A stretch of 64,000 nt of DNA from the NCBI GenBank assembly GCA_945861785.1, contig CAMAWD010000007.1:13730-77729 (forward strand). Reading direction: 5' to 3'. This document shows positions 4,248 to 22,449 of this stretch, in pieces. Source of the DNA: Rhodoferax sp. OV413. GTDB lineage: Bacteria > Pseudomonadota > Gammaproteobacteria > Burkholderiales > Burkholderiaceae_C. Below the pieces are notes generated by a model, which saw only the letters and a program-made list of their open reading frames with translations, made no database searches and was not told where the DNA came from. The position numbers were made by a program, and so were the translations under genes. The first letter of the stretch is position 1; each line of letters starts with the position of its first letter.

Positions 4248-5342
4248 TCAGGTTCCCGGTCCGTCCGCGAGTCCAGTGACCCCGGCCAATCCTGGCGATT
4301 GCCCCCCAACCACCCCAAACAAATGGCAAGCCACCACCGCCCCCCGCTGCAACCCTGGCACCCGGCGCGGCACCAGCGAAGGAACGCTTTCCTGGCACCT
4401 TGCCATGGCATTCGGGCAACGCGCCGCAAACGCGCAACCTTTCGGCGGGTTGGCCGGGTCCGGCAGTTCCGAACCCGCTACTTCGTTCTCCGCCGCGATG
4501 TGTGCCGCACCCCCAGTCTTGTTGCGGCTGGGGATCGATGACAACAACAGCCGCGTGTAGGGGTGCACCGGCTGCTCGAAGATGTCGCGCGCCGGCGCCA
4601 GCTCGACGATGCTGCCGAAATACATCACCGCCACGTCGTCGCTGATATGCCGCACCACCGAGAGGTCGTGCGAGATGAAGACCATCGCCATGTTGTGCTG
4701 GCGGCGCAATTGCATCAGCAGGTTCAGGATCTGCGACTGGATCGACACGTCCAGCGCCGACACCGGCTCGTCGGCCACCAGCAGGCGCGGCTCCAGCGCC
4801 AGGGCGCGGGCAATCGCGATGCGCTGGCGCTGCCCGCCCGAAAATTCGTGCGGGTACTTGTCGGCGTCGCTGTCGGTCAGTCCCACGGTTACCAGCAGTT
4901 CATGCACGCGCTGCATGCGTTGCGCGCGGGTCTTGTCGGTCCAGTGAATATCCAGCGGCTCGCGCACGATCTCGCCGATCGTGTGTTTCGGGTCGAGCGA
5001 TGAAAACGGATCCTGGAACACCATCTGCATCCAGCGCCGGTGCGTGCGGCCTGGTTTTGCCGTGGGGGAGATCCAGTCGACACCGGCGAATTCGACCTTG
5101 CCGGCCGTCGCGTCGATCAGGCGCATAAGCGTGCGCGCCAGCGTCGACTTGCCGCATCCCGACTCGCCGACGATGCCCAGCGTGCGGCCATCGTACAGCT
5201 CGAAGCTCACCGCGTTGAGCGCCTTGAACTGCTTGTTGCCGGGCAGCATGAAGTGTTTGCTCAACCCATGTACCCGCAATAGCGACGCCGCTGGGGGCGA
5301 CGCGGGATTGCCGCCGGCCGGGCGGCTTGTGTCAGCGTGCAT
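4248..5342 (-). CDS. Dipeptide/oligopeptide ABC transporter ATP-binding subunit (OppF/DppF-like)
   Basis: Walker [17 protein letters not shown] signature, ADEPVSALD, C-terminal HPYT and Cys motif. Confidence 0.95.
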   Translation of the reverse strand: MHADTSRPAGGNPASPPAASLLRVHGLSKHFMLPGNKQFKALNAVSFELYDGRTLGIVGESGCGKSTLARTLMRLIDATAGKVEFAGVDWISPTAKPGRTHRRWMQMVFQDPFSSLDPKHTIGEIVREPLDIHWTDKTRAQRMQRVHELLVTVGLTDSDADKYPHEFSGGQRQRIAIARALALEPRLLVADEPVSALDVSIQSQILNLLMQLRRQHNMAMVFISHDLSVVRHISDDVAVMYFGSIVELAPARDIFEQPVHPYTRLLLSSIPSRNKTGGAAHIAAENEVAGSELPDPANPPKGCAFAARCPNAMARCQESVPSLVPRRVPGLQRGAVVACHLFGVVGGQSPGLAGVTGLADGPGT

Positions 5343-6318
5343 CGGCGTACCAGCAGGCAGCTTGTTCTTCGGGCTTGCCGCCCAGCACCGTCATCGGGGC
5401 GGCCTTTTCGCAGCGCGCATCAGCCCGGCTGCAACGGGACGCGAAAAGGCAGTTCTCGCCGCGCGCGCCCAGCGGCGGCACCGTGCCCGCAATCGTCGGC
5501 AGCAGTTCGCCCGGTGGGTGCCGCGCAGGAGCTGTCTGCAGCAGGGCACGGGTGTAGGGGTGTGCTGGATGGTCGAACAGCGCGGCCACACTGCGCTTCT
5601 CCGCGATGCGCCCGGCGTACATGACGGCAACCGAATCGCAGTGGTCGGCCACCAGCGCCAGATCGTGGGTGATCCACAACATGGCCATGTTGAATTCCCG
5701 GCGCAGGTCGGCCAGCAGCCGCAGAATCTGCGCCTGCACCGTCACGTCGAGTGCCGTGGTGGGTTCGTCGGCGATCAGCAGCTTGGGCTGGCAAGCCAGC
5801 GCCATCGCGATCATCACGCGCTGGCGCTGCCCGCCGGACAACTCGTGGGCGTAGGCGTGCACCCGTTTGGCCGCGGTGGCGATGCCCACCATGTCGAGCA
5901 GCTTCACTACCTGCGCCGCAGCGGCCTGCGCGTCCATGCCGCGGTGCAGACGCAGGCCCTCTGCCACCTGGTCGCCCACGGTCAGCACCGGGTTCAGGCT
6001 GGTCATCGGCTCCTGGAAGATCATCGCGATCTGGCTGCCACGCAGCTGGCGCATGGCCTTTTCGGGCAGCGCCAGCAGATCCTGGCCCTCGAACAGGATG
6101 CGGCCGCCGGCATAGACCGTCTGCGCGCGGGGCAACAGCCGCATCACCGCCATCGCGGTCACGCTCTTGCCGCAGCCCGACTCACCCACCAGCCCCAGTG
6201 TCTGGCCTGCGTGCAGCTGCAACGAGACATGGTCGAGAACGGTGTGGGTGCCGCGCGCAGTGCGCAGGCGCACGCTCAGGTCCTGGATGTCGAGCAGGGG
6301 AGGCGGCGGGTTGTACAT
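5332..6318 (-). CDS. Dipeptide/oligopeptide ABC transporter ATP-binding subunit (OppD/DppD-like)
   Basis: [41 protein letters not shown]. Confidence 0.95.
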
Positions 6319-6325
6319 TTACGAA

Positions 6326-7375
6326 ATGATGACTCGATCGAGCCGGGAAAGGGACTTGGCGCCGCGCATCGAAGCGGCCATCGCCGATGTTACCCCGGGC
6401 GTGGTGCTGCGCGCCTTCAGCGGCGGTGCGCTGGTGTGCGACCTGCGGGTCGGCGATACCCGGCGCTTTTACGACCTGGCGTCGCTGACCAAGATCGTCT
6501 TCACCCAGCAGGCGCTGGTGCAGGCTTTCGACGCAGGGCTGTGGACACTTGACACGACCGTGGGCGACGTTTTGCCCGACTTCACCCATCCACAGACCCA
6601 TATCACCGAGCTGCTGACGCACACTTCCGGCATCGAGTGGTGGATGCCGTTTTACGAGTCGGTGGACATGGACCTGTCCTGGATGGATCGGCGGCGCTGG
6701 TTGTATGCGCAGTTGCAGGCCGCACCCTGCAACAAGACCGGCCGAGCGGTGTATTCCGATCTCGGATTCATGCTGCTGGGTTTCGTGCTGGAGGCGATGC
6801 ACGGGAAGAACCTGTTGCAAATCTGGCAGAGTCTGAAAGCACACAGCTACGCGGGCAGCAGCCTGGACTTTCACGCCGACAACCTGCCGCTGCACCCGCG
6901 CGACCAGTACGCGGCCACCGAGTTGTGCCCCTGGCGCCGCAAGCGCCTGCAGGGCGAGGTGCACGACGACAACACCTGGTCGTTCGGCGGAGTGTCCACC
7001 CATGCGGGGTTGTTCGGCAGCATCGATGACCTGGCGGCTTATGGCCTGCAGTTGCGCACGCAGTTGCTGGGTTTGCCCGGCGCCGTGGTGCAACACGCCA
7101 CTGCGCTTCAATTTTCCCGGCGCGCCATTCCGGTCGAGGCCGGCGACTGGGCGCTGGGTTTCATGCTGCCCTCGCCGCATGGCGCCAGTTGCGGCCGGTA
7201 CTTTTCGCCACGTTCTGTCGGCCACACCGGTTTCACCGGCACCTCGTTGTGGTTCGACCCCGAGCGCGACCTGCTGGTCACGATCCTTAGCAACCGGGTG
7301 TACGGGGGGCGCGAGAACAAGGCCTTCCTGGCGCTGCGCCCGCAGCTGCACGATTGGGTGGTGGAGTCTTTGTGA
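6326..7375 (+). CDS. Beta-lactamase-family serine hydrolase (AmiE/AmpH/YfeW-like)
   Basis: SxxK (ASLTK), LLTHTSG, YSDLGF and HTGFTG motifs; no signal peptide. Confidence 0.9.
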   Translation: MMTRSSRERDLAPRIEAAIADVTPGVVLRAFSGGALVCDLRVGDTRRFYDLASLTKIVFTQQALVQAFDAGLWTLDTTVGDVLPDFTHPQTHITELLTHTSGIEWWMPFYESVDMDLSWMDRRRWLYAQLQAAPCNKTGRAVYSDLGFMLLGFVLEAMHGKNLLQIWQSLKAHSYAGSSLDFHADNLPLHPRDQYAATELCPWRRKRLQGEVHDDNTWSFGGVSTHAGLFGSIDDLAAYGLQLRTQLLGLPGAVVQHATALQFSRRAIPVEAGDWALGFMLPSPHGASCGRYFSPRSVGHTGFTGTSLWFDPERDLLVTILSNRVYGGRENKAFLALRPQLHDWVVESL

Positions 7376-7866
7376 ACGACCCGCAGCCCACATCCGACTT
7401 GCAGGTCACGCCGCTCGAGGGCGAGGCCCTGGAGCGCGACTGCGCGGCACTGATGGCGGCATCCGACCCGTGGTTGACCCTCGGCTACGGCTTCGACGAT
7501 CTGTTGCGTACAGTGCGCCTGCCGGGTCGCGAGCGGTATGCGGCACATGTCGACGGGGAGTTCGCCGGCTTCCTGCTGCTCAACCTGCACGGCACCTTCG
7601 CCGGTTATATCCAGACCATCGGCCTGGCACCCCAGTTTCGCGGCAGTGGCCATGGCGCGGAGCTGCTGGCGTTTGCGGAGCAGCGGATATTGCGCGAGCA
7701 CCAGAACGTGTTTCTCTGCGTGTCCTCGTTCAACCATGCTGCGCGGCGGTTCTACGAGCGGCTGGGGTACAGCCAGGTTGGCGAACTGGTGGACTTTCTG
7801 GTGCAGGGGCATTCCGAGCTGCTGCTGCGCAAGACCATCGGGCCCTTGCGCCAGCGCAAACCATAG
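7372..7866 (+). CDS. GNAT-family N-acetyltransferase
   Basis: Acetyl-CoA motif FRGSGHG and N-x-x-A-x-x-FYERLGY; GTG start overlaps the hydrolase stop (GTGA). Confidence 0.9.
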   Translation: MNDPQPTSDLQVTPLEGEALERDCAALMAASDPWLTLGYGFDDLLRTVRLPGRERYAAHVDGEFAGFLLLNLHGTFAGYIQTIGLAPQFRGSGHGAELLAFAEQRILREHQNVFLCVSSFNHAARRFYERLGYSQVGELVDFLVQGHSELLLRKTIGPLRQRKP

Positions 7867-7891
7867 GAGTGTGGGCGGCAGGCGTCTGCCA
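7865..7891 (+). repeat. Direct repeat, left copy (AGGAGTGTGGGCGGCAG-gcg-TCTGCCA)
   Basis: 24/27 identical to 17044-17070, first 17 bp identical; contains a GGCAG/CTGCC hairpin; begins at the GNAT stop codon. Confidence 0.85.
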
Positions 7892-8084
7892 CACGGCAGA
7901 CATCCGCACACGCCAGCATACGCGTCACGCAACCATCCTTTGCTCGCGACATCATTGGCCGGGACTGGTTTCGCCGGCCATGCCGCCGAGGGGACACGGG
8001 ATCGCCGTCGCTTGCGATAACCTCGGCCCGGTAGGGCACGCGGGCCCCACGTTCCTACCGGACATACCTACAAGGAGACTTCCT

Positions 8085-9242
8085 ATGCTTTCCCAGATGA
8101 CCTTTCCAATCCTCGCGCTGCCGCAGATGGAATTCGGCGTGGATGTATCGCTGAACCTGGCGGCCCACGTGAAGGCGCTCGGGCGCAGCACGGCACTGAT
8201 CGTCACCGACGCCGGCCTGGTGGCCAGTGGAGCCATTGCCCCGCTGCTGGCCAAACTGCGGGCCGACGGCATCACCGTCGAGGTGTACGACGGGGTCGAG
8301 GCCAACCCGACCGACCTCAACGTGATGGCCGGCGCCGAACGCCTGCGTGCGCTCGACAAGCCCGTGCTGGTCGCCATCGGTGGCGGTTCGGCCATGGACT
8401 GCGGCAAGGCGATCGCGCTGCTGGCGCCCAATGGCGGCACGGTGGCCGAGCTGCAGGCGGCCCCGCCGCGGCACCCCGGCGTGCCCGTGATTGCGGTGCC
8501 CACCACCTCGGGCACCGGCTCAGAGACCAACCATGCCTGCGTGATCACAAACACGACGCTGGGCCGCAAGACCGTGCTGATTGACCTGAGCATCCGGCCC
8601 ATGGTCGCGCTGCTCGATCCCCGTCTGACGCTGGGCCTGCCGAAGTACCCGACCGCGACCTGCGGGTTCGACGTACTCACGCACGCCGTCGAGGCCTTCA
8701 CGTCGGTGCGCTGCACGCCGTACTCGGATGCGCTCGCGCTGGGCGCGATCCGAATCGTGGCGCGCCACCTGCGCGCGGTCGTCGCCGATGGGTCCGACCT
8801 CGAGGCGCGTTCGCAGTTGCTGCTGGCCTCCACCATGGCGGCGGCGGCGTTCCTGGTGTCGGGCCTGGGCAGCACGCACGGCACGGGCCATGCGTTGTCG
8901 GCGCGGCTGAATGCGGCCCATGGCCAGACGCTGGCCACCATGTTGCCGCATGTCATGGACTACAACATGCCAGTGCGCGCGGCCAAGTACGCCGAGGTGG
9001 CGCAGGCGCTGGGCGTGGCCTCGGCCACCGAGAGCGAGCAGCACAATGCGCGGGCGGCGATCCACGAGGTGCTCGCATTGCGCGCCGCCATCGGAATCGA
9101 GCGCTCGATACGGGAGCTCGGCGGCACCGATGCGCTGCTGCCCTTGCTGGTCGCCGATGCCCTGGCGGATCGCGCGAACCTGGCCAATCCGCGTCCACTG
9201 GACGCGGCCGCCTTCGAAGCCCTTTACCGGGCCGCCTGGTAA
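8085..9242 (+). CDS. Iron-containing alcohol dehydrogenase
   Basis: GGGSAMDCGK, PTTSGTGSE, DVLTHAVEA, H-x-x-x-H and HG metal ligands; AAGGAG RBS. Confidence 0.93.
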   Translation: MLSQMTFPILALPQMEFGVDVSLNLAAHVKALGRSTALIVTDAGLVASGAIAPLLAKLRADGITVEVYDGVEANPTDLNVMAGAERLRALDKPVLVAIGGGSAMDCGKAIALLAPNGGTVAELQAAPPRHPGVPVIAVPTTSGTGSETNHACVITNTTLGRKTVLIDLSIRPMVALLDPRLTLGLPKYPTATCGFDVLTHAVEAFTSVRCTPYSDALALGAIRIVARHLRAVVADGSDLEARSQLLLASTMAAAAFLVSGLGSTHGTGHALSARLNAAHGQTLATMLPHVMDYNMPVRAAKYAEVAQALGVASATESEQHNARAAIHEVLALRAAIGIERSIRELGGTDALLPLLVADALADRANLANPRPLDAAAFEALYRAAW

Positions 9243-9441
9243 GACCGCTCGGGCGTGTCAGCGCCCGGCCGAAGGCGGGACAGCTTTTGCTGCCGGGTGC
9301 GATCGTGCGCTTCGACCCGGCCGCCCACCTGCTTCACTGTTGCCGTCGCGGAAGGAACACAGAAGCTGGGGCGCCAGCGCGCCCGGCAGGGTCACCATCT
9401 TCTGCCCGGTGCGCGGGGCGCATGCTGCACGCGTCGAACTG

Positions 9442-10425
9442 TCAGGACTTCAAATCCAGACCCTTGGCGGCCTCAGTCATCCATGCAATTTCTGACATGA
9501 TGAACTGGCGAAAATCATCGGGCGACTTGCTGACAACGGCATTTTGACCGGATGCAACCATCTTCTCCAGCACCGAAGGGTCTAATGCTGCAGCGCTTAC
9601 CTCTCGGTGGAGGTGCTGCACGATCTCGGGCGGGACACCTGCGCGGGCCACGAGGCCACTCCAATAGGTCATGGGCGGTAGATTCACACCCGCCTCGGCA
9701 AAAGTTGGAACGTTCGGCATGTCCTTCCAGCGCACACCATCCATCATCGCAAGGACCTTTACCTTCCCGGAGGGCGCGAATTGCTTGGCGAAGAACCCTG
9801 GGGCCATTAAGAAGCTGACGGTACCGCTCATCAGCGCCTGGACCGCGTCGGGGCCACCGCGGAAAGGCACTGCCAGGCCTTTGAAGCCGGCGATGCGCTC
9901 AAACTGGGTTAGCTTGAGGTGCTCAGCCGTGCCGACGCCGGTGGTTCCGTAGCTGAGCTTGTCGGGGTTGGCGCGTCCGTAAGCGGCCATTTCGCCCAGG
10001 GTCTTGAATGGAGAGTCACCGTTAACAATCAGTGCGATGGGGCTGGTAGATGTCACCGAGATGTGCGCGACTTGCTTTTCCATGTCGAACTGCTTCTGTA
10101 CGGCATGCAACGCCGCGAAAGAGTTGGTGGTATGCATCAGCGTATGCCCGTCTGCTGGCGCCGCCTGCAGTGCTTGCCAGGCGATCATGAAACCGCCTCC
10201 CGTGCGGTTTTCCACGATCACCGTTTGTTTGAGGTTCTTTTCGAGCACTGCGGCCAGCGCCCGCATGCCAACATCGGCGGCGCCACCGGCTGGAACACCG
10301 ACGATGATGCGCAGGGGCCCGCTCGGAAACCCGGACTGCGCACGAAGCGGCAGGGCCAAACTGGCGGCGGCCGCGGCTGCGACCTGAAGGACCCGGCGGC
10401 GGGGATGGTTGGTAGTGTCTGGCAT
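9442..10425 (-). CDS. Bug/TctC-family (tripartite tricarboxylate transporter) periplasmic binding protein
   Basis: Tat-like RRRVL leader, PAGGAAD, VENRTGGG, YGTTGVGT, PNVPT motifs. Confidence 0.92.
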   Translation of the reverse strand: MPDTTNHPRRRVLQVAAAAAASLALPLRAQSGFPSGPLRIIVGVPAGGAADVGMRALAAVLEKNLKQTVIVENRTGGGFMIAWQALQAAPADGHTLMHTTNSFAALHAVQKQFDMEKQVAHISVTSTSPIALIVNGDSPFKTLGEMAAYGRANPDKLSYGTTGVGTAEHLKLTQFERIAGFKGLAVPFRGGPDAVQALMSGTVSFLMAPGFFAKQFAPSGKVKVLAMMDGVRWKDMPNVPTFAEAGVNLPPMTYWSGLVARAGVPPEIVQHLHREVSAAALDPSVLEKMVASGQNAVVSKSPDDFRQFIMSEIAWMTEAAKGLDLKS

Positions 10426-10798
10426 GTCTGTCTCCTGGTCTAGGGTTGGTTCGTCGGGCTGCGGAATCATCATATTCGCAGAACCGGAATACACAATACG
10501 GTCAACTTATCAGCGTGAGCTCTTGGCGACAGTACAGGCTTCCGGGAAGACTCGAGCGCGTCCGTCAACTCCGGCTTGCAGTTGGCTTGCCCGGGGCATT
10601 GCGGCACCAACAAGGGCCGCCATTTGCACCAGCATAAGAGGGGCCACATGCCCGAGCAGATGCCTGGCGGTCCGCGCAATGTCAAGCGAGCGTCGTGAAG
10701 TCGCAGACTCAGTCTTTGGCGGAAATCATGCAAGTTCGGGTTCGTCAATTATGCTTGTCGGGTCAGAACCGAACACAACCCATCCGTGAGCATCCACC

Positions 10799-12588: not shown

Positions 12589-12712
12589 CCGCGCCCAGGA
12601 CGACCAGCGCCGGCAATTCGGGCTGCGCAGCCGATGCACGCAGCGTGACCGGCCCGAAGTAGCCGCACGCCGGGCTGCGCATGCAATGCCCCGGACCCGG
12701 CCCGCACAGCCC

Positions 12713-13969: not shown

Positions 13970-13999
13970 ATTGATTCTCCTCTCAAGGGTGTTTGGGGC

Positions 14000-14836: not shown

Positions 14837-16936
14837 ATGGCCCACCCGCTCGACAGCCTCTTCAACCCGTCGTCCATCGCAGTGGTCGGCGCCTCCAACT
14901 CGCTGGGAAAGATCGGCGCGGCACCGATGAGCTTCCTGCTGAACTTCGGCTATCAGGGGGAGATCGTCCCGATTCATCCGAGCGACACCGTTGTGCAGGG
15001 GCGGCAGGCCTGGCCCAGCCTGCTTGCCGCGGTGCAAGGCGGTGGCCGGTCGATCGACCTGGCCATCGTAGCCGTACCCGCGGAACGGGTGGCAGAGACG
15101 GTCGCCGATGCAGGCCGCGCCGGTGTGGGCAACCTGGTGATCTTTTCCTCGGGTTTCAGCGAGACCGGCGAGGACGGCGCACGCGCGCAGCGCGAGCTGG
15201 TGGCGCAGGCGGCCCGCCTGGGCATCCGCATGCTCGGCCCGAACTGCCTTGGTTTCATGAACGTGGGGCAGAACATCTATGCAACATTTTCCCCGGTGAT
15301 AAAGACGGGGCGTGCCGTGCGTGGACCGATCGCGCTGGTCAGCCAGAGTGGTGCCTTCGGCGCCTACGCCTATTCGCTCGCGCGCGGGCGCGGCGTCGGC
15401 CTGTCGCACTGGATTACGACCGGAAACGAGGCCGGACTTGGCGTGTCCGACTGCATCGAATGGCTGATTCAGGACGAGCACACACGGGTCATCATGGTTT
15501 ACATCGAAGGCGTGCGTGAGGGTGAGCGCTTCAAGCGGGCGCTGGCCGGGGCGCGTGCCGCTGGAAAGCTGGTGGTAGCGGTCAAGGTCGGGCGCTCCGA
15601 GCTTGGCGCGCAGGCCGCGGCCTCGCACACCGCGTCGCTGGCTGGTGACGACGCCGCGTACGAAGCCCTGTTCCGACAGTATGGCGTGTGGCGCGCGCAT
15701 GGCATCGACGAGTTCTTCCAGGTTGCCCATGCGCTGGTCGTGTCGGGCTCGCCGCGGCGCTCCGGCCTGGGAGTGATGACGGTCTCGGGCGGCGTGGGCG
15801 TTTTGCTGGCCGACGAGGCACAGGCTCGCGGCCTGGCAATGCCGCCGCTACCCGAGGCAGCGCAACAACGCGTCCTGCAATGGGTGCCGTTTGCCGGGCC
15901 GCGCAATCCGGTGGACATCACCGGCATGGCGGCGGCCCAGCCGGAGCTGATCGAGAAGGCCATGCGCCTGATGCTCGACGAAGGCGGCTACGGAACATTG
16001 CTGCTGTTCATTGCTGCCGCAGGCCTGGCCCCGGCAGGCTGGGAGACGCTGCACCAGTTGGCCGTCCACCTGCGCCGCGATTACCCGGACGTCGTGCTGG
16101 CCTACTGCTGCCTGATCACACGGGAGCGGCAGCAGGCGCTGCAGGACATCGGCTGCCTGAGTTACGACGAACCGACCTACGCGGTGCGGACACTGGCGGC
16201 GCTGGAGTACTTCCGCGCGGCCGCTGCGCAACCTGTGCGCACGCTGACCATGCCGGCCGCGGTGGCAAAGCCCGATCTCCCTATGACCGAGGCGCGCGCT
16301 CTGGCCTGGCTGGACGCGCAGGGACTTCCGGCCATGCACCACCAGGTCGCCACCAGTGCCGCGGAGGCGGAGCAAGCCGCACAGGCACTCGGCTTTCCGG
16401 TGGTGCTGAAGGTGTCGTCGCCGGATATTCTGCACAAGAGCGAGCTGGGCGGCGTGGCGCTGGGTCTGTCCGGCGCCGTTGAAGTGCGCCAGGCGTTCGA
16501 CCGCATCATGCAATCCTGCCGCGGCGCAGCGCCGCTCTCCCGCATCGAAGGCGTGCTTGTCGCGCCCATGGTGGGCGGCGGCGTGGAGTGCATCCTGGGC
16601 GTGCGTCACGATCCGGCGCTGGGCGCACTGGTGATGCTGGGCATCGGCGGGGTGGACGTGGAGTTGTTGCGCGACGTCAGCGTGCGCGTGGCCCCGGTGG
16701 ACACGGCCCAGGCGCAGACCATGGTTGACGAGCTGAAACTGGCCCCACTGCTGCGCGGGCATCGGGGCCGGCCGCTGGCTGACGAGGCCGCCCTGGTGGC
16801 AAGCTTGGTGCGGCTGTCCGAACTGGGCGCCGCATGTGACAGTTGGATGGACGCGATCGAGATCAACCCGTTGAAGGTGCTTGCCAAGGGCCAGGGGGTG
16901 GTCGCACTGGACGCGGTGGTGACCGCAAGGAGCTGA
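14837..16936 (+). CDS. Acetate--CoA ligase family (ADP-forming acyl-CoA synthetase, fused alpha/beta)
   Basis: LDSLFNPSSIAVVGAS, GPNCLG, SQSGA, SHT phospho-His motif, C-terminal ATP-grasp (LKVSSPDILHKSE, EINPL). Confidence 0.93.
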   Translation: MAHPLDSLFNPSSIAVVGASNSLGKIGAAPMSFLLNFGYQGEIVPIHPSDTVVQGRQAWPSLLAAVQGGGRSIDLAIVAVPAERVAETVADAGRAGVGNLVIFSSGFSETGEDGARAQRELVAQAARLGIRMLGPNCLGFMNVGQNIYATFSPVIKTGRAVRGPIALVSQSGAFGAYAYSLARGRGVGLSHWITTGNEAGLGVSDCIEWLIQDEHTRVIMVYIEGVREGERFKRALAGARAAGKLVVAVKVGRSELGAQAAASHTASLAGDDAAYEALFRQYGVWRAHGIDEFFQVAHALVVSGSPRRSGLGVMTVSGGVGVLLADEAQARGLAMPPLPEAAQQRVLQWVPFAGPRNPVDITGMAAAQPELIEKAMRLMLDEGGYGTLLLFIAAAGLAPAGWETLHQLAVHLRRDYPDVVLAYCCLITRERQQALQDIGCLSYDEPTYAVRTLAALEYFRAAAAQPVRTLTMPAAVAKPDLPMTEARALAWLDAQGLPAMHHQVATSAAEAEQAAQALGFPVVLKVSSPDILHKSELGGVALGLSGAVEVRQAFDRIMQSCRGAAPLSRIEGVLVAPMVGGGVECILGVRHDPALGALVMLGIGGVDVELLRDVSVRVAPVDTAQAQTMVDELKLAPLLRGHRGRPLADEAALVASLVRLSELGAACDSWMDAIEINPLKVLAKGQGVVALDAVVTARS

Positions 16937-16961
16937 AACTTTCGACCGGCCACGGGTAGAT

Positions 16962-17043
16962 ATGACCATGCAACACAAAATCAACCAGCGCCAGTTTGGC
17001 GTCGCGCCCGCGGCGGCGGGGATGACGCCTTCCGCCATCGACG
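16962..17043 (+). pseudogene. Possible 5' remnant of a secreted (Bug-like) protein truncated at the cassette boundary
   Basis: MTMQHKINQRQFGVAPAAAG resembles a degenerate twin-Arg signal; the frame then runs into the direct repeat and loses recognisable character. Confidence 0.3.
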
Positions 17044-17070
17044 AGGAGTGTGGGCGGCAGAGATCTGCCA
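17044..17070 (+). repeat. Direct repeat, right copy (AGGAGTGTGGGCGGCAG-aga-TCTGCCA)
   Basis: 24/27 identical to 7865-7891; the copies are 9179 bp apart. Confidence 0.85.
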
Positions 17071-17229
17071 AACCCTGCACAACGCGCATAGAACGCCCTG
17101 AGGTCCAGGGCATCCACCGTGTCGCCAATGAAGTCCGCCAAGTGTCCCTTGGGCAGCCTGTCACGGATGCTAAGATGATTTTTTGACTGCGGGAAGCCGT
17201 TCCGCACCGCCACAACAAGGAGATTGCCC

Positions 17230-18753
17230 ATGACCACCCCCATTGCCACCGCCACCCGTCGCCCGCTGACCCTGCGCCTGGCCGCGCTTGCTGCTGGCCT
17301 CGCATTTGCCGGAATCGCCAGCGCCCAGGTGCTGGAGATCGCCGCCGACGGTTCGCCGGCCGGGCTCGACCCGCATGTGGTGCCAGCCTTCAACACGGTG
17401 CTGATCAACAAGAACATTTATGAAGGGCTGACCGCGATCGACAAGGACCTCAAGATCGTGCCCTCGCTGGCCACCTCCTGGACCATCTCCAAGGACGGCC
17501 TGAGTTACCGCTTCAAGCTCAAGCCCGGCGTCAAGTTCCACAACGGCAAACCGATGGGCGCCGCCGACGTGGTGGCCTCGCTGTCGCGTGTACGCGACAC
17601 CAAGACCGGCTCTCCCTATGCCGCACGGCTGTCGATGGTCAAGGAGATCGTGGCCGACAAGGGTGACGTGGTCATCAACCTGAACACCGCCTCGCTGCCG
17701 CTGGTGGGCCAGCTCGAAGCCGTCGCCATCGTGCCGGCCGAGTCCCTGGCCAACCCGGCCGACCTGCAGAAGGTGCCGGTTGGCACCGGGCCGTTCAAGT
17801 TTGACAAGTGGGTGACCGATGCCCACGTCAGCCTGGTCAAGAACCCCAGCTACCACGTGGCCGGGCTGCCCAAGCTCTCCGGCCTCAAGTTCAACATCGT
17901 GCCCGAGGCCAGCACGCGCCAGGCCGGCATGGCCAGTGGCGCCTACCAGTTCTTTCCGTCGGTCGATGCAGTCACCATCAACGCGCTGGCGCGTATTCCC
18001 GGCGTGGTCACCACCAAGGTGCCAGACCTCGGTTACAGCCTGGTCGGCATGAACGTGAGCAAGCCGCCGTTCGACAACCCCAAGGTGCGCGAGGCCCTGA
18101 ACTACGCCCTGAACCGCCATGAAATCGTGCGTGGCGTGTACCTGGGTCGCGCCTCGATCGCCGCCCCGTTGCCAGCGGTGCTGACCGAGTGGGCGGTTCC
18201 GTACACCGATTTCCCGTGTTACCAGTCCAACCCCGAGAAGGCGAAGGCCCTGCTGAAGGAAGCCGGCGTGGCGATGCCACTGGCCATCACGCTCAATGTG
18301 CTGCCCAACCCGGTGGCCAAGGACACGGCCGAGATCGTGCAGGCGCAGCTGGACAAGGGTGGCTTCAAGGTCACCTTGCTGGCCCAGGAGATCGGTAAAT
18401 TCGTCGCCGACTGGCGCGCGTCGAACTTCACCGCCTTCGTGTCGCTCAACGGCGGCGGTGTGGACCCGGACGACTACTTCTACCGCACCTTCTACACCGG
18501 TTCGTCGACCAACGTCTTCAAGTACTCGAACACCGCGCTCGACAAGCAGCTCGACGCCGGCCGCGCCGCCACCAACAAGGTCGAGCGCAAGAAAATTTAC
18601 GACGATGTGCAGAAGACACTCGCCTGCCAGGGCCCGATCGCCTTCCTGGCCAACGGCGACCTGTTCACCGCCATGCGCGCCAACGTGAAGGACTTCGCCC
18701 CGATCAGCACCCGCTCGCTGGTGTACCTGCGCCAGGCGACCCTCGAGAAATAG
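17230..18753 (+). CDS. ABC transporter substrate-binding protein, family 5 (peptide/oligosaccharide)
   Basis: Signal peptide; LDP...IYEGL, PSLATSW, GVKFHNG, VGTGPFKF, PFDNPKVREAL; AAGGAG RBS. Confidence 0.95.
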   Translation: MTTPIATATRRPLTLRLAALAAGLAFAGIASAQVLEIAADGSPAGLDPHVVPAFNTVLINKNIYEGLTAIDKDLKIVPSLATSWTISKDGLSYRFKLKPGVKFHNGKPMGAADVVASLSRVRDTKTGSPYAARLSMVKEIVADKGDVVINLNTASLPLVGQLEAVAIVPAESLANPADLQKVPVGTGPFKFDKWVTDAHVSLVKNPSYHVAGLPKLSGLKFNIVPEASTRQAGMASGAYQFFPSVDAVTINALARIPGVVTTKVPDLGYSLVGMNVSKPPFDNPKVREALNYALNRHEIVRGVYLGRASIAAPLPAVLTEWAVPYTDFPCYQSNPEKAKALLKEAGVAMPLAITLNVLPNPVAKDTAEIVQAQLDKGGFKVTLLAQEIGKFVADWRASNFTAFVSLNGGGVDPDDYFYRTFYTGSSTNVFKYSNTALDKQLDAGRAATNKVERKKIYDDVQKTLACQGPIAFLANGDLFTAMRANVKDFAPISTRSLVYLRQATLEK

Positions 18754-18794
18754 GGCGTGATGGGGGAAAGGGTGGCGTTGGCCATGCAGGGCCC

Positions 18795-19751
18795 ATGCGC
18801 GGCCTGATCTTCAAGCGCCTGCTCGACCTGGCCGGCGTGTTGCTGGGCGTGTCGATCCTGGTGTTCCTGATGATCCGGCTGATCCCTGGCGATGCCGCGC
18901 AGGTGATGCTCGGCGCCAGCGGCGACGCCAGCGAAGAGCAGGTGCAGCAGCTGCGCCTGAAGCTGGGCCTGAACGACCCGGTGCCGGTGCAGTACCTGCG
19001 CTGGATCGGCAACATGGCGCAAGGCGATTTCGGCGTCAGCATCTGGACCGGCAAACCGGTGATGGACGACATCGCACAACGCATCGGTGTCACGGCCGAA
19101 CTTACCTTCCTCTCCCTGCTGCTGGCGGTGGTCTTCTCGATCCCGGCGGGGGCCCTGATGGCGTATTTCCGGGGCAGCGTGTCGGACGTGCTGATGCGCA
19201 TCATCACCATCACCGGCGTGACCATGCCGGCCTTCTGGCTCGGTGCGCTGTTGATCTTCGGCTGGGCGATCTGGTTTCCCAACTGGCAGACCCTGGGCTC
19301 GATTCCGCCTTTTTCCGAAGACCCCTGGTCGCACCTGCAGCGCATGTTCCTGCCCACGCTGACCTGCGCCCTGCCGGTGATCGCCTCGCTGGCGCGCATC
19401 ATGCGGTCGGCCATGATCGATGCGCTGGGGCAGGACTACATCCGCACGGCGCGCTCCAAGGGCCTGGACGAGTGGACGGTCACCTTCAAACACGCGCTGC
19501 GCAACTCGCTGATCCCGTTTGTCACTGCGCTGGGCATCATGGCGGGGTACCTTTTCAGCGGTGCGATCGTGGTCGAACAGGTGTATGCCATACCAGGTCT
19601 GGGGCGCCTGATGCTCGGCGCCATCGCAGACCGCAATTACCCGCTGATCCAGACTTCGATCCTGGTGGTGACCTGCGCCTTCGTGGTCATCAATGCCGTG
19701 ATCGACCTGTTGTACCGGGTGATCGACAAACGCGCGGGGGCTGCGTCATGA
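18795..19751 (+). CDS. ABC permease (OppB/DppB-like)
   Basis: IPGDAA, GDFGVSI, EAA-loop DYIRTARSKGL, IPGLGRL. Confidence 0.95.
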   Translation: MRGLIFKRLLDLAGVLLGVSILVFLMIRLIPGDAAQVMLGASGDASEEQVQQLRLKLGLNDPVPVQYLRWIGNMAQGDFGVSIWTGKPVMDDIAQRIGVTAELTFLSLLLAVVFSIPAGALMAYFRGSVSDVLMRIITITGVTMPAFWLGALLIFGWAIWFPNWQTLGSIPPFSEDPWSHLQRMFLPTLTCALPVIASLARIMRSAMIDALGQDYIRTARSKGLDEWTVTFKHALRNSLIPFVTALGIMAGYLFSGAIVVEQVYAIPGLGRLMLGAIADRNYPLIQTSILVVTCAFVVINAVIDLLYRVIDKRAGAAS

Positions 19752-20599
19752 TCAGCCGCTGGTTCAACCACGTGGGGCGCGACTTCGTGCGCAACCCGAT
19801 CCTGATGCTGGCGCTGACCCTGGTGCTGCTGCAGGTGCTGATTTCAGTGTTTGCCAGCCTGATCGCGCCCTACGACCCGGTGGCGCAGGCGGTGGAGGCG
19901 CGCATGGCGCCGCCGAGTGGCGAGTTCCTGCTGGGCACCGACAAGCTCGGGCGCGACGTGTTGTCGCGCATCATCCACGGCTACCGGTCCTCGCTGGGCA
20001 TTGCGTTCTCGGCGGTGTTCGTGGCGCTGCTCTTGGGCGGCAGCCTGGGCATCTGGGCCGGCTACAAGGGCGGCTGGATCGACCGCGTGGTGATGCGCCT
20101 GGCCGACGTGTTGTTCGCCTTCCCGATCATCCTGCTGGCCATCGGCGTGATCGCCATCCTGGGCACCAACACCGCCTCCACCGTGGTCGCGATCGCGGTC
20201 GTGTATTCGCCCATCTTCGCGCGGCTGATGCGTGCACCCACGCTGGTGCTGCGCAGTGCAGACTACGTACACGCGGCCCGCAGTTTCGGCGCCGGCGACC
20301 TGCGCATCGTCGTGCAGCACATCATGCCCAACCTGATGAGTGTGATCCTGGTGCAGGCCAGCCTCTCGTTGTCCACGGCCATCCTGCTGGAGGCCAGCCT
20401 GTCGTTCCTGGGCATTGGCGCACAACCGCCGGCGCCGTCGCTGGGGCGCATGTTGTCGGAAGGGCGCGACTACATGTTCATGGCACCCTGGGCGAGTTTA
20501 TTTTCCGGTCTGGCTATCCTCCTGGCGTCGCTGGGTTTCAACCTGCTGGGCGATGGCCTGCGCGACCGGCTGGATCCGCGCCTGCGCGGGATCGACTGA
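19748..20599 (+). CDS. ABC permease (OppC/DppC-like)
   Basis: LGTDKLGRDVLSRII, DYVHAARSFGA, HIMPN, NLLGDGLRDRLDP; ATGA overlap. Confidence 0.95.
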   Translation: MISRWFNHVGRDFVRNPILMLALTLVLLQVLISVFASLIAPYDPVAQAVEARMAPPSGEFLLGTDKLGRDVLSRIIHGYRSSLGIAFSAVFVALLLGGSLGIWAGYKGGWIDRVVMRLADVLFAFPIILLAIGVIAILGTNTASTVVAIAVVYSPIFARLMRAPTLVLRSADYVHAARSFGAGDLRIVVQHIMPNLMSVILVQASLSLSTAILLEASLSFLGIGAQPPAPSLGRMLSEGRDYMFMAPWASLFSGLAILLASLGFNLLGDGLRDRLDPRLRGID

Positions 20600-20633
20600 A
20601 GTAATTCACGCGTCCGTCGCGGGAAAGGTGGGC

Positions 20634-21767
20634 ATGGCGGTAGAGATTTATGGCGGTGCAATGTCAGGCACCAGCCTCGATGGCGTGGATGTGGTGCTGG
20701 CTGGTTTCGAAGGCGCGGACGGCGGCCTGTCGGATGCCAACGTCAAGGTGCTGGCGCATGTCTACACGCCGTACCCGGTGGCTTTGCGCGAAGAGATCCT
20801 GGGCATATGCCATGGCCAGCCGTTGACGCTGCCGCACTTGGGTGTGGTCGACCTGGCCATTGCCCGCAAATATGTCGAGGCGATCCGTGCGGCATTGTCC
20901 GCAGCCGGCCTGACCCCGTCGGAGGTGAAGGCAGTCGGTGTGCATGGCCAGACGGTCTACCACCAGCCGCTGGGCCCCGACCGTTTCACGATGCAGATCG
21001 GCGACCCGAACACCATCGCCGTGGGCACCGGCGTGCCGGTGGTGGCCGATTTCCGCCGGCGCGACATGGCACTGGGCGGGCAGGGCGCGCCACTCGCCCC
21101 GGCTTTCCACGACCATTGGTTCCGCCACGCCAGCCGCACGCGCGTGGTGCTCAATGGCGGGGGCATCGCCAACATCACGGCCCTGCGGCCTGGTCAGGAC
21201 ACCTATGGTTTCGATACCGGCCCGGCGAATGTGCTGATGGACGGCTGGTGCACTGCAAAGACCGGCCGGCCGTACGACGACAAGGGGCAGTGGGCGCGCA
21301 GCGGCAAGGTGCTCGACCGCTTGCTCGCCACGATGCTGCAGGAGCCCTATCTGAAGTTGCCCCATCCAAAGAGCACCGGGCGCGAGCTTTTCCACATGCA
21401 GTGGTTGCAGGCGTGTACCACCGGCAGTGCTTGTCAGCACGCGGCGGATGCCGACGTGATGCGCACACTGCTGGAGTTCACCGTGCGCACGGTGTCCGAC
21501 GCCGTGGCGCCGGTGGACGCGACCGGCGGCGAGTTGTTTGTCTGCGGTGGCGCCGCGATGAACGACTTTTTCATGCAGTGCCTGGCCGATGCCCTGCCGC
21601 AGTGGGCCGTGCAGAGCACCGCGGCGCGCGGCATTGCCCCCGACCAGGTAGAGGCGATCGCCTTTGCGAGTTTTGCGCGCCGCACCGTGCTGGGCCTGCC
21701 GGGCAACCTGCCGTCGGTCACCGGCGCCAGCCGCCCATGTGTTCTGGGGGCTCTGTATGCCGTCTGA
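20634..21767 (+). CDS. anmK: Anhydro-N-acetylmuramic acid kinase
   Basis: MSGTSLDGVD, HGQT, DFRRRDMALGGQGAPL, GGIANIT, FDTGPAN, KSTGRELF, EAIAFA. Confidence 0.93.
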   Translation: MAVEIYGGAMSGTSLDGVDVVLAGFEGADGGLSDANVKVLAHVYTPYPVALREEILGICHGQPLTLPHLGVVDLAIARKYVEAIRAALSAAGLTPSEVKAVGVHGQTVYHQPLGPDRFTMQIGDPNTIAVGTGVPVVADFRRRDMALGGQGAPLAPAFHDHWFRHASRTRVVLNGGGIANITALRPGQDTYGFDTGPANVLMDGWCTAKTGRPYDDKGQWARSGKVLDRLLATMLQEPYLKLPHPKSTGRELFHMQWLQACTTGSACQHAADADVMRTLLEFTVRTVSDAVAPVDATGGELFVCGGAAMNDFFMQCLADALPQWAVQSTAARGIAPDQVEAIAFASFARRTVLGLPGNLPSVTGASRPCVLGALYAV

Positions 21768-22449
21768 CACCGCCACCGAGGCCCATGAGCAGCAGATCCT
21801 CGACTGCTGGCACCAGAACGCCGACCCCTGGGTCGATGCCATCCGCAATCAGGAGATCGCCAGCCGTGTGCTGGCGACCAACCAGGCGATAGAAAATGCG
21901 ATTCTCGCGACCCAGCCTTCCAGCGTGATCGATGCGGGCTGTGGCGAAGGCTGGCTGGTGCGCCGGCTCGTCGCCTGCGGCATCGCGGCGCGCGGGCTGG
22001 ACGTTGTGCCCGCGCTGATCGGGTCGGCGAAGCGCCAGGGGGGCGAGTTTGCCGTGGCCAGCTACGACGACATCGCGCGTGGCGCCGTCGCATGGCGCGC
22101 CGACACGGTCAGTTGCAACTTTGCCCTGATCGGCAAGGAGTCGACCGAACAACTGCTGCGCGGTGTGGCCACCTTGCTGAACCCCGGCGGGCACTTCATC
22201 GTGCAGACACTGCACCCGGTGGAGGCCTGCGGCACCCAGCCCTGTGAGGACGGCTGGCGCCAGGGAACGTGGGACGGTTTCAACCAGCGTTTCGTGAATG
22301 CCGCACCCTGGTATTTCCGCACGCTGGAGAGCTGGCGCGCATTGTTCGTGACCTGCGGCCTGCGGCTGGTGAGCGAGCACTGGCCGGTCCATCCGCGCAC
22401 GGGGCGGCCGGCGTCGGTGGTGTTTGTGGCGGTGGTGGCTGCGGTTTAG
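21757..22449 (+). CDS. Class I SAM-dependent methyltransferase
   Basis: VIDAGCGEGW motif I; overlaps the anmK stop. Confidence 0.88.
   Translation: MPSDTATEAHEQQILDCWHQNADPWVDAIRNQEIASRVLATNQAIENAILATQPSSVIDAGCGEGWLVRRLVACGIAARGLDVVPALIGSAKRQGGEFAVASYDDIARGAVAWRADTVSCNFALIGKESTEQLLRGVATLLNPGGHFIVQTLHPVEACGTQPCEDGWRQGTWDGFNQRFVNAAPWYFRTLESWRALFVTCGLRLVSEHWPVHPRTGRPASVVFVAVVAAV

Follow-up and report, generated by a model that had tools for sequence, protein, structure and literature searches.

A split Rhodoferax locus that probably salvages anhydro-N-acetylmuramic acid fragments by ABC import, with a cytoplasmic serine amidase in the place of AmpD

The locus described here is best read, with reasonable though not high confidence, as an ABC-fed salvage unit for fragments containing 1,6-anhydro-N-acetylmuramic acid (anhMurNAc), in which a cytoplasmic serine amidase stands in for AmpD. 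That is, a hydrolase resembling penicillin-binding proteins (PBPs) probably does AmpD's job in an AmpD-less bacterium. It lies in a window of 64,000 nt (the whole stretch of DNA that was analysed) from Rhodoferax sp. OV413, in two halves that derive from one ancestral nine-gene unit: dppF and dppD, divergent from the genes of the putative serine amidase and a GNAT acetyltransferase, followed by a promoter and the genes of a solute-binding protein (SBP), permeases B and C, AnmK and a methyltransferase. A 9.18-kb catabolic cassette split this unit by entering downstream of the GNAT stop codon and upstream of the presumed transporter promoter.

Results

Organization of the locus

Gene identities were assigned with Pfam and NCBIfam profiles, with start codons refined afterwards, and all genes named in the earlier note were recovered at their positions. 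Two ATPase genes are on the minus strand. The first gene of this pair is DppD/OppD-like (5332..6318; 328 aa; PF00005 and PF08352; OppD-like NCBIfam matches), the other is DppF/OppF-like (4248..5342; 364 aa; the same two domains, ABC_tran and oligo_HPY; top NCBIfam match a dipeptide ABC ATP-binding subfamily). Both are divergent from the gene of a serine hydrolase with a beta-lactamase fold of the YfeW/PBP4B type (6326..7375; 349 aa; PF00144, 119.5 bits), the starts being only about 7 bp apart (6318 versus 6326). The TGA stop codon of the hydrolase gene is overlapped by the GTG start codon of the GNAT gene (GTGA), a configuration of translational coupling (7372..7866; 164 aa; PF00583). About 9.3 kb, with genes unrelated to salvage, separates this half from the other, which encodes a family-5 SBP with a signal peptide (SBP_bac_5; 17230..18753; 507 aa; PF00496, 287.7 bits), a DppB/NikB/GsiC-like permease (18795..19751; PF00528 and PF19300, and NCBIfam), a DppC/GsiD-like permease (19748..20599; PF00528 and PF12911), the start of which forms an ATGA overlap with the preceding permease gene, and the anhydro-N-acetylmuramic acid kinase AnmK (20634..21767; PF03702, 454.9 bits; NF007139, 453.9 bits versus a cut-off of 367). 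The hydrolase, GNAT and anmK genes had been described as lying on one strand; this is the plus strand, which also carries the SBP and permease genes.

The two halves form one unit in related genomes

The earlier note had suggested that the two ATPases and the ATPase-less SBP-permease set complement each other. The proximity of the halves is weak evidence by itself because the genome contains about 35 Opp/Dpp-type sets, at least seven SBP-permease sets without ATPases and three orphan ATPase pairs. The relatives support the suggestion. Thirteen Rhodoferax-like relatives, with SBP identities of 86–95%, have a single block in which the halves are directly adjacent: the minus-strand F and D genes, then, divergently, those of the hydrolase, GNAT, SBP, permease B and permease C (with AnmK and the methyltransferase), while one more relative has the same genes in a rearranged order. 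The orphan ATPases thus belong with the ATPase-less SBP and permeases, and the two halves are one locus. Hydrolase, GNAT and transporter occur together in all 14 Rhodoferax-like loci, the GNAT gene always adjoins the locus in the relatives, and a DppF-like ATPase gene adjoins the SBP-permease genes in loci L001–L016, L013, L022 and L038.

The inserted cassette (9.18 kb) is edged by a 30-bp direct repeat, of which the genome has just two copies when up to 4 mismatches are allowed. The left copy (7865..7894) begins within the GNAT stop codon, and the right copy (17044..17073) matches it at 26 of 30 bases. The cargo (7867..17160) yields Pfam matches to Fe-ADH, TctC, GST, GntR/UTRA, P450, 2Fe-2S ferredoxin and an ADP-forming acyl-CoA synthetase, and it is missing from the GNAT-SBP spacer, about 100–250 bp long, of all 13 colinear relatives. 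Downstream of the right copy, 54 nt upstream of the SBP start, lies an extended −10-like box, TGCTAAGAT (17168..17176, plus strand), which occurs only once in the window and is kept in relatives; the motif (T/C)GCTAAGAT is retained in L001, L004, L005, L011 and L014, the spacers of which have otherwise diverged. This box is likely to be the transporter operon's own promoter, spared by the insertion, and the cassette probably inactivated neither half.

The transporter is linked to AnmK

The nearest PDB relatives of the SBP are the DppA, HbpA, GsiB and AgaA group. Where DppA anchors the N-terminus of its peptide through an Asp (D408, mature numbering), the SBP has Gly, as do all its AnmK-linked relatives; the Arg355 loop is also shorter. 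Homologous SBP-B-C sets (SBP identity 52–74%) adjoin an AnmK gene scoring above the NCBIfam cut-off in L013, L017 and L038, and the actinobacterial L039, with an SBP just 33% identical, has the order SBP-B-C-MurQ-AnmK-D-F-NagA. The view that the locus handles peptidoglycan fragments is supported by these AnmK neighbours, which transporters of this type have among Beta- and Alphaproteobacteria alike, and by the company of MurQ, AnmK and NagA in L039. The SBP is a candidate binder of anhMurNAc-containing fragments, as suggested by its gene context and the two binding-site differences.

AnmK itself gave a single tblastn match in the 7.1-Mb genome; a second anmK, which the earlier note had considered, was not found there, and the copy in the locus is the only one. 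It is divergent, with about 45% identity to the AnmK that is canonical in related Burkholderiales genera, and in most locus-bearing genomes the locus type has displaced the canonical one. The nearest AnmK homologues outside the clade (52–58% identity) show no linkage to an ABC transporter.

The hydrolase and the GNAT

The hydrolase lacks a signal peptide and has the motifs S-L-T-K, Y-S-D and H-T-G. Its identity to E. coli YfeW is 28%, and the two have in common the motifs D-x-A-S-x-T-K (SLTK), YSD, GxVHD, HAGLF and GHTGxTGT. PBP4B/YfeW is its only significant NCBIfam match, yet it represents a separate subfamily because its score is far below the equivalog cut-off (86.5 versus 385 bits). The AlphaFold model has a pLDDT of 94.2, and all PDB relatives are at most 21% identical.

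The GNAT shows weak similarity to RimI and N-alpha-acetyltransferases. Homologues with 57–60% identity are encoded in peptidoglycan-catabolic islands, once directly 3' of a BLA-NamZ fusion and otherwise beside Amidase_2, NlpC/P60, MR_MLE epimerase and DAP decarboxylase genes. The GNAT, for which the earlier note offered no more than a possible re-N-acetylation of deacetylated sugars, is a real part of such systems.

AmpD is absent or nearly absent where the hydrolase is present

AmpD is the cytoplasmic 1,6-anhydro-MurNAc-L-alanine amidase, a zinc amidase of the Amidase_2 family (PF01510). The genome has no Amidase_2 gene, while AmpG (528 bits), NagZ, MurQ, LdcA and Mpl are all encoded. An AmpG-independent route, as envisaged earlier, is not supported: ampG is present in the genome, 15 of the 16 genomes in the genus with the locus encode it, and the missing canonical gene is ampD.

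Among genomes of the genus, a set that takes in one closed 6.8-Mb chromosome, 16 have the hydrolase without AmpD, 18 have AmpD without the hydrolase, none has both and three have neither (Fisher's exact test, 9e-8); this exclusion is largely a clade split, amounting to about 1–3 evolutionary events, not 34 independent observations, because the AmpD-bearing genomes form one clade in an rpoB tree (97% support; weak backbone). Elsewhere in the order, 23 of 24 genera encode AmpD. The only distant genome with a hydrolase homologue in an ABC-AnmK locus, that of a member of the Rhodospirillales (G062), lacks Amidase_2, although this is a single metagenome-assembled genome, the completeness of which is not established; all five distant genomes with hydrolase-less ABC-AnmK loci encode Amidase_2. 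Bdellovibrionia present a third case: of 101 genomes, 93 have the hydrolase family and 12 have Amidase_2, every match to the latter being weak. Nine hydrolase-bearing genomes have such weak matches, and the two strongest are in genomes without the hydrolase. The gene order ldcA-hydrolase-mpl was found in 18 of 18 Bdellovibrionia genomes checked, the ligase being narrowly assigned to Mpl from one sequence scored against NCBIfam (393.1 bits versus a cut-off of 388.7; MurC model, 325.4 versus 335.1). AnmK is present in just 38 of these 101 genomes. The hydrolase there tracks peptide salvage, and a carboxypeptidase role would fit this too.

The YfeW/PBP4B type, the phyletic exclusion of AmpD and the ldcA-hydrolase-mpl order in Bdellovibrionia together indicate that the hydrolase is probably a MurNAc-L-Ala-type amidase, and to this extent the serine amidase acting on muropeptides that had been proposed earlier is supported.

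Discussion

Proposed pathway and alternatives

We propose that the SBP, the two permeases and the two divergent ATPases, which conserved synteny identifies as partners, would work as one Opp/Dpp-type importer. Its ligand would be a 1,6-anhydro-MurNAc fragment, most likely anhMurNAc-peptides, which may also carry GlcNAc, because of the AnmK linkage (in proteobacteria and, by analogy, in the actinobacterial operon) and the loss of the Asp that binds the peptide N-terminus. This ABC route would run beside the retained AmpG. In the cytoplasm, the hydrolase would cut the anhMurNAc-L-Ala amide bond and so take AmpD's place, as suggested by the exclusion in three lineages and by the ldcA-hydrolase-mpl order. 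By family assignment, AnmK would convert the freed anhMurNAc to MurNAc-6-phosphate for MurQ, encoded elsewhere, and the freed peptide would pass to LdcA and Mpl, also encoded elsewhere in the genome. More speculatively, the coupled GNAT could act on the amidase product, either by N-alpha-acetylation of the freed L-Ala N-terminus or by re-N-acetylation of a de-acetylated sugar.

Alternatively, the importer might carry only the sugar part (anhMurNAc or GlcNAc-anhMurNAc) to AnmK and MurQ, with the hydrolase and GNAT separately processing anhMurNAc-peptides delivered by AmpG, so that adjacency would reflect a shared pathway and not one substrate stream. This fits the cores of L013, L038, L020 and L039, which consist of ABC and AnmK genes without hydrolase or GNAT (in L039 with no additions but two sugar enzymes, MurQ and NagA), the apparently separate promoters of hydrolase-GNAT and transporter, and the presence of the Bdellovibrionia hydrolase without this transporter. 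However, in the DppA/GsiB group family-5 binding proteins have mostly peptide-like ligands, and the invariable company of hydrolase, GNAT and transporter in the Rhodoferax-like loci also speaks against it, which makes it a doubtful reading, if one to be taken seriously. We regard it as unlikely that the hydrolase is instead a cytoplasmic DD-/LD-type peptidase that trims stem peptides ahead of LdcA and Mpl, the loss of AmpD being covered by another amidase or by periplasmic amidases. Its fold, that of PBPs and DD-peptidases, and its R61-like H-T-G motif would suit such an enzyme, and E. coli YfeW, a DD-carboxypeptidase according to reference 19 of PMC5061867, is reported to have weak activity of this kind and not to be an amidase. 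The ldcA-hydrolase-mpl order equally fits peptide trimming, and the hydrolase is far commoner than AnmK in Bdellovibrionia. But the strict exclusion of AmpD in three lineages would be left unexplained, genomes retaining AmpG, NagZ, AnmK and MurQ would offer AnmK no source of free anhMurNAc, and a cytoplasmic DD-carboxypeptidase would endanger UDP-MurNAc-pentapeptide.

Very improbable, in our judgement, is an ordinary uptake locus for peptides, opines or D-amino-acid peptides, with an Opp-type importer, a D-aminopeptidase-like hydrolase, a detoxifying GNAT and anmK as an accidental neighbour. The genome does have about 35 such transporters, the nearest solved binding proteins take dipeptides, glutathione or opines, and GNATs often detoxify products of peptide uptake. 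Yet Beta- and Alphaproteobacteria link AnmK to homologous transporters, and in an actinobacterium it accompanies a distant SBP_5 transporter, with MurQ and NagA also encoded there; moreover, the AnmK concerned is the genome's sole copy, sets of peptidoglycan genes elsewhere contain the hydrolase or the GNAT, and the SBP is without the Asp for a peptide N-terminus.

Comparison with known systems

The preferred reading, salvage of anhMurNAc fragments with a serine amidase in the place of AmpD, assigns the hydrolase the reaction of AmpD and the same place in the pathway, with the peptide going to LdcA and Mpl and anhMurNAc to AnmK. In fold and chemistry the two are unrelated, AmpD being a zinc amidase and the hydrolase of the locus a serine enzyme of the PBP/beta-lactamase fold, and across genomes each excludes the other. 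E. coli MppA binds free murein tripeptide and borrows the Opp permease (OppBCDF). It resembles the proposed importer in combining a family-5 binding protein and Opp-type permeases and ATPases with a ligand derived from peptidoglycan (in our locus, a proposed one); in contrast, the system in the window comes with permeases and ATPases of its own, and its SBP is devoid of DppA's Asp for a free N-terminus. AmiE (YbbE) of B. subtilis has a beta-lactamase fold. It is a proven MurNAc-L-Ala amidase encoded in the operon murQ-murR-murP-amiE-nagZ-namZ, and E. coli YfeW/PBP4B is encoded in murQ-murP-yfeW (PMC5061867; PMC8054146). Both genes belong to operons for MurNAc recycling, and in sequence the hydrolase of the locus was compared with YfeW, whose motif set it shares; however, AmiE and YfeW are exported, AmiE acting extracellularly on MurNAc-peptides, whereas our hydrolase lacks a signal peptide. 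YejBEF-YepA is the muropeptide ABC importer of Agrobacterium tumefaciens (Gilmore and Cava, 2022; PMC9790009), and YepA was reported only in Alphaproteobacteria, mostly without AmpG (PMC9790009). This system, dedicated to anhydromuropeptide recycling, is likewise proteobacterial, belongs to the Opp superfamily of ABC importers and has a family-5 binding protein. In contrast, the permeases and SBP in the window match Dpp/Gsi/Nik-type models (the YejB model gives 110 bits versus a cut-off of 445), and the locus retains AmpG, links the transporter to anmK and goes without AmpD.

A class I SAM-dependent methyltransferase gene (21757..22449, plus strand; 230 aa; Methyltransf_23/25/11), absent from the earlier description, lies within the same range and overlaps the anmK stop codon by 11 nt. 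It is the final gene of the locus in L002, L005, L006, L009, L011 and L014, and its product matches an uncharacterised methyltransferase, PDB 3e8s (E = 5e-49).

Gene content and organization of the locus

The gene map of the window, based on six-frame ORFs, Pfam and NCBIfam searches, GC3 values and inspection of start codons, showed that the gene inventory in the earlier note was correct. Two genes on the reverse strand, encoding a DppF-like (F; 4248–5342) and a DppD-like ATPase (D; 5332–6318), are followed on the forward strand by the gene of a 349-aa serine hydrolase of the PF00144 family (BLA; 6326–7375) and a GNAT gene (7372–7866). The second part of the locus, entirely on the forward strand, consists of the genes for a family-5 binding protein with a signal peptide (SBP; 17230–18753), permeases B (18795–19751) and C (19748–20599), AnmK (20634–21767) and a SAM methyltransferase (21757–22449); an EamA gene (22534–23427) follows on the reverse strand. 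The map adds two features to the inventory: the ATPases are encoded on the opposite strand, divergently from BLA, and the methyltransferase, translationally coupled to AnmK, ends the operon. The divergent start codons of D and BLA are about 7 bp apart (6318–6326), a distance that is equally tight in relatives, so that each promoter must sit within the coding sequence of the other gene.

An insertion splits a unit that is contiguous in relatives

Relatives were collected by a scan with the binding protein, keeping one genome per species, and all window proteins were searched with tblastn against the returned loci. The comparison identifies the organism as a Rhodoferax-like bacterium of the Comamonadaceae. 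In 13 relatives (L001, L002, L004, L005, L008–L012, L014–L016 and L021), with binding proteins 86–95% identical to that of the window, the genes are contiguous in the order F(−)-D(−)-BLA-GNAT-SBP-B-C-AnmK-(methyltransferase). In one further relative, L006, BLA has moved to the far side of the ATPase pair. The 9.3-kb middle segment was found in none of the 13 contiguous relatives and not in L006, and the spacer between GNAT and SBP in relatives measures about 100–250 bp. The extra DNA in the window is flanked by a 30-bp direct repeat (7865–7894 and 17044–17073) that includes an inner hairpin and whose two copies agree at 26 of 30 positions; no further copies with up to four mismatches were found in the genome. 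At 54 nt upstream of the SBP start lies a TGCTAAGAT box similar to an extended −10 element; it is kept in the otherwise diverged spacers of the relatives and is intact to the right of the insert. This conservation suggests that the transporter–AnmK operon probably kept its own promoter after the insertion. The genes past the F ATPase and past the methyltransferase show no conservation among relatives, and thus the nine genes act as a discrete unit. The locus is real and coherent, and its split is due to a recent insertion that is probably harmless.

The inserted cassette encodes an Fe-ADH (~8100–9242, +), a TctC protein (9442–10494, −), a GST (10799–11851, +), a GntR/HutC-type regulator with a UTRA domain (~11890–12588, +), a P450 (12713–13969, −), a 2Fe-2S ferredoxin (14000–14320, −) and, at its right end directly upstream of the SBP gene, an ADP-forming acyl-CoA synthetase (~14840–16936, +). 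The family of the regulator includes the amino-sugar regulators NagR and DasR; this member probably governs the P450 and ADH genes of the cassette itself. A 38%-identical acyl-CoA synthetase directly follows the BLA homologue in a Rhodospirillales locus (L017:522–2590), and its presence near the locus in both cases may be a coincidence. A third, more diverged copy of the repeat, AGGAGTCTGGGCGGCACCAATCTGCCAAAC, with six mismatches, lies on another contig of the genome (C61:15884) and could serve as a further target for, or mark the end of, an insertion of this kind.

The importer and its link to AnmK

With a family-5 binding protein, two BPD_transp_1 permeases and two oligo_HPY ATPases, all adjacent in relatives, the locus encodes an importer of the Opp/Dpp type (PepT). 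The genome holds about 35 systems of this type, at least seven SBP–permease sets that lack ATPases, and three orphan ATPase pairs. Therefore, proximity alone is a weak argument for pairing the ATPases with the permeases, and synteny in relatives was used instead. The D–F pair is arranged head-to-head with the SBP–permease genes in all Rhodoferax-like loci and also in the distant loci L013 (Burkholderiaceae), L022 (Methylobacterium) and L038 (an alphaproteobacterium). This conserved adjacency settles the question of whether the orphan ATPases complement the ATPase-less SBP and permeases, as had been proposed from the window alone. Elsewhere in the genome, at least seven other SBP_5–permease–permease sets without adjacent ATPases are located on contigs C13, C19, C23, C3, C43, C48 and C59, and the two other orphan D–F pairs on C1 and C3, so that ATPase sharing or split Opp-type systems seem to be common in this genome.

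Muropeptide import by an ABC transporter is already known for YejBEF-YepA. The importer described here does not belong to this family: scores were 110 bits with the YejB model (cut-off 445) and 96 bits with the YejE-type model (cut-off 439), and there are two separate ATPases, whereas YejBEF has the fused ATPase YejF. The nearest solved relatives of the binding protein are DppA, HbpA, GsiB and AgaA; PDB sequence searches with the GNAT, the methyltransferase and the binding protein yielded no specific function. When the binding protein is aligned with E. coli DppA, the position of D408 of the mature protein, the Asp that anchors the alpha-ammonium group of the peptide in the DppA structures, is occupied by Gly in the window SBP and in 13 of 13 AnmK-linked relatives examined. 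In addition, the loop bearing Arg355 is five residues shorter. Judged from the alignment, these differences would fit an N-blocked or non-peptide ligand.

The kinase is a clear AnmK (PF03702, 454.9 bits; NF007139, 453.9 bits, cut-off 367) and, as the check for a second anmK suggested in the earlier note revealed, the sole one in the 7.1-Mb genome. The AnmK proteins of 60 relatives fall into two types, the locus type (71–91% identical to that of the window) and the usual Burkholderiales type (about 44–48%). Most locus-bearing genomes have the locus type only; G024 has both, and G004 (locus L002) has lost the locus AnmK and kept the usual type. Homologous SBP-B-C sets (SBP 52–74% identical) adjoin genes above the AnmK equivalog cut-offs in L013, L017 and L038, so that the co-occurrence of the transporter with AnmK extends to more distant genomes. 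An actinobacterial operon (L039:9962–18504) has the order SBP-B-C-MurQ-AnmK-D-F-NagA, with MurQ, AnmK and NagA above the NCBIfam cut-offs, and looks like a complete anhMurNAc route from import to GlcN-6-P. Its SBP is only 33% identical to that of the window, little more than the 23–30% of the paralogues in the genome analyzed here, and the operon may be a case of convergence and not a member of the same transporter family. We rejected ABC linkage as a trait of the AnmK subclade of the locus, because three checked homologues with 52–58% identity lack an ABC transporter and stand alone or beside NagA and NagK.

The Burkholderiaceae variant L013 lacks the hydrolase and GNAT, and AmpD is present. 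Its ATPase genes are followed by the gene of an FAD-linked oxidase of the GlcD/D-lactate dehydrogenase type (L013:6138–7652); D-lactate is a by-product of MurQ. A methyltransferase downstream of the permeases in the alphaproteobacterial locus L020 is not a specific homologue, as only the SAM motif matches (E = 0.004).

AmpG is retained and AmpD is missing

The usual scheme of peptidoglycan recycling is modelled on E. coli and comprises AmpG, NagZ, AmpD, LdcA, Mpl, AnmK and MurQ. To our knowledge, AmpD, which is also central to AmpC induction, is treated as the sole cytoplasmic amidase in this scheme. AmpG is present in the genome analyzed here (TIGR00901, 528 bits, cut-off 350) and in 15 of the 16 locus-bearing genomes of the genus. 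The AmpG-independent route postulated in the earlier note is thus not supported, and replacement of AmpG by the locus was rejected. Searches with E. coli K-12 proteins also revealed NagZ, MurQ, Mpl and LdcA (split across contig ends), but no AmpD, and Amidase_2 (PF01510), the AmpD family, is absent from the whole genome. Hence, among the genes that had been singled out for checking, ampG, nagZ and murQ are in place and ampD is not. AmpG independence is thus not the distinguishing trait of these genomes; the absence of AmpD is.

BLA is related to YfeW

BLA belongs to the PF00144 superfamily (119.5 bits), with the motifs SxxK, Y-x-(N/D) and (K/H)-(T/S)-G; in a set of 34 homologues, S53-L-T-K56, Y143-S-D145 and H300-T-G302 do not vary. 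No signal peptide and no PF01510 match were found in BLA, and the proposed relation to AmpD is one of functional replacement, not of family membership. The only significant NCBIfam match is PBP4B/YfeW (NF002968), with 86.5 bits at a cut-off of 385. BLA is thus not an orthologue of E. coli YfeW, with which it shares 28% identity over 328 residues (BLASTP), and the YfeW equivalog is an exported protein, whereas BLA lacks a signal peptide. Nevertheless, when BLA was aligned with YfeW, one BLA-NamZ fusion, the homologue from Rhodospirillales and two from Bdellovibrionia, the following signature was invariant (D-x-A-S-x-T-K, Y-S-D, G-x-V-H-D, H-A-G-L-F and G-H-T-G-x-T-G-T).

The AlphaFold model of BLA is confident (pLDDT 94.2), and Foldseek matched it to family VIII esterases, the R61 DD-peptidase and class C enzymes with TM values of about 0.7 at no more than 21% identity. 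This generic fold does not separate amidase from peptidase. A cytoplasmic DD-carboxypeptidase would endanger UDP-MurNAc-pentapeptide, which would argue for BLA as an anhMurNAc-specific amidase. A MurNAc amidase, AmiE (YbbE of B. subtilis), is already known and presumably belongs to the same beta-lactamase-fold group as BLA and YfeW. AmiE, encoded in murQ-murR-murP-amiE-nagZ-namZ, is a proven exo-MurNAc-L-Ala amidase, and YfeW is the product of the third gene of murQ-murP-yfeW (PMC5061867, PMC8054146). By its YfeW-type motifs and the homologous BLA domain fused to NamZ, BLA would resemble an amidase of the AmiE type.

Distribution of BLA and AmpD

Across 37 genomes of the genus, many of the compared assemblies being metagenome-derived, BLA and AmpD never occurred together: 16 genomes have BLA only, 18 have AmpD only, and three have neither (Fisher's exact test, kinship ignored, 9e-8). 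With genomes at least 90% complete, the counts for both, BLA only, AmpD only and neither were 0, 9, 8 and 2 (7e-4). Among the BLA-bearing genomes is a closed chromosome of 6.8 Mb (G011, OZ257131.1). Outside the genus, AmpD was found in 23 of 24 other genera of the order, and BLA in none. A maximum-likelihood tree of rpoB groups the genomes with AmpD in a single clade (97% support), albeit on a weak backbone. The genus therefore counts as about one to three evolutionary events, and a reading of the 16-to-18 exclusion as many independent events was rejected, since it is essentially one clade split. The independent events behind the exclusion are few. Two assemblies may be mixed: G006 contains two different rpoB copies and G035 two rpoB pieces that differ in identity (96.6% and 94.5%), a possible cause of the odd placement of G035.

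Independent lineages were then sought among distant ABC–AnmK genomes and in the Bdellovibrionia. Among eight ABC–AnmK genomes, the only distant one with a BLA homologue at the locus is G062 (Rhodospirillales; 31% identity, same motifs), and no Amidase_2 was found in it; Amidase_2 is present in five of five such genomes whose loci lack BLA. The closest relatives of BLA outside the clade, with 55–59% identity over the full length, are from Bdellovibrionia, predatory bacteria that live on the cell wall of their prey. BLA is single-copy in 93 of 101 Bdellovibrionia genomes (at least 85% complete). Amidase_2 was detected in 12 of the 101, with weak scores of 27–87 bits, and the two highest-scoring hits come from genomes without BLA, of which there are eight (Fisher 0.006, strong hits). 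In 18 of 18 Bdellovibrionia genomes examined, spanning 37–100% identity, the BLA gene lies between ldcA and a gene for a Mur-type ligase. The one ligase scored (L085) narrowly exceeded the cut-off of the Mpl model (393.1 versus 388.7 bits) and stayed below that of MurC (325.4 versus 335.1). It is LdcA and Mpl that process the stem peptide after its release, directly downstream of the AmpD step. Literature searches returned no description of an ldcA-X-mpl arrangement or of a serine replacement for AmpD.

A candidate AmpD replacement in a possibly transferable unit

Most likely, the unit imports anhMurNAc-containing fragments in parallel with AmpG, and it would probably provide these genomes with a cytoplasmic amidase and an AnmK, both of which they lack elsewhere. 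In its most general form, our proposal is that the cytoplasmic YfeW/PBP4B-type hydrolase subfamily is a general replacement of AmpD, that is, an anhMurNAc-L-Ala amidase, in bacteria lacking Amidase_2 (nearly all Bdellovibrionia, with ldcA-X-mpl, the Rhodoferax-like clade of Comamonadaceae and some Alphaproteobacteria), and that it came to the Rhodoferax clade in a transferable unit. This unit would bring along an AnmK of its own, an ABC importer dedicated to anhMurNAc fragments and a conserved GNAT, which would catalyse an undescribed step of recycling. We give this proposal, all parts taken together, slightly less than an even chance. A PBP-fold serine enzyme may perform the AmpD step in whole lineages, including the predatory Bdellovibrionia. 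If so, pathway reconstructions in which a missing AmpD counts as missing recycling would be in error, the recycling pathway would include a cytoplasmic and possibly beta-lactam-sensitive enzyme, and a clear function in cell physiology would emerge for the family of Bacillus AmiE and E. coli YfeW. The locus would also represent a second, independent family of anhMurNAc-tied ABC importers besides YejBEF-YepA, and it points to a conserved GNAT that may mark an undescribed reaction on cell-wall fragments.

The GNAT

The acetyltransferase belongs to Acetyltransf_1 (PF00583, 56.3 bits) and is not a RimI (TIGR01575, 38.8 bits, cut-off 86.4); its best matches are weak and comprise RimI and eukaryotic N-alpha-acetyltransferases. 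Homologues outside the clade (57–62% identity) were found in peptidoglycan-catabolic islands in four of the five contexts examined, together with Amidase_2, DAP decarboxylase, Peptidase_M15, NlpC/P60 and an MR_MLE epimerase. The host of one of these islands is distant, its LeuRS being only 50% identical to that of the genome analyzed here. One homologue directly follows a 782-aa fusion of a BLA domain, which has the same motif set, with NamZ, an exo-N-acetylmuramidase. Together with the islands, this arrangement indicates that BLA followed by GNAT is a recurrent module in the processing of cell-wall fragments. As a speculation, the substrate of the GNAT could be the L-Ala amine exposed by the amidase or a de-acetylated amino sugar.

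The YfeW-type fusion and the 58%-identical GNAT downstream of it are located at L161:5663–8537, in a distant high-GC lineage; related contexts are L159, L162 and L163. With Amidase_2, DAP decarboxylase, Peptidase_M15, Beta-lactamase2, NlpC/P60, an MR_MLE epimerase and Peptidase_C26 around the fusion, this type of island looks like a complete island for the catabolism of peptidoglycan fragments.
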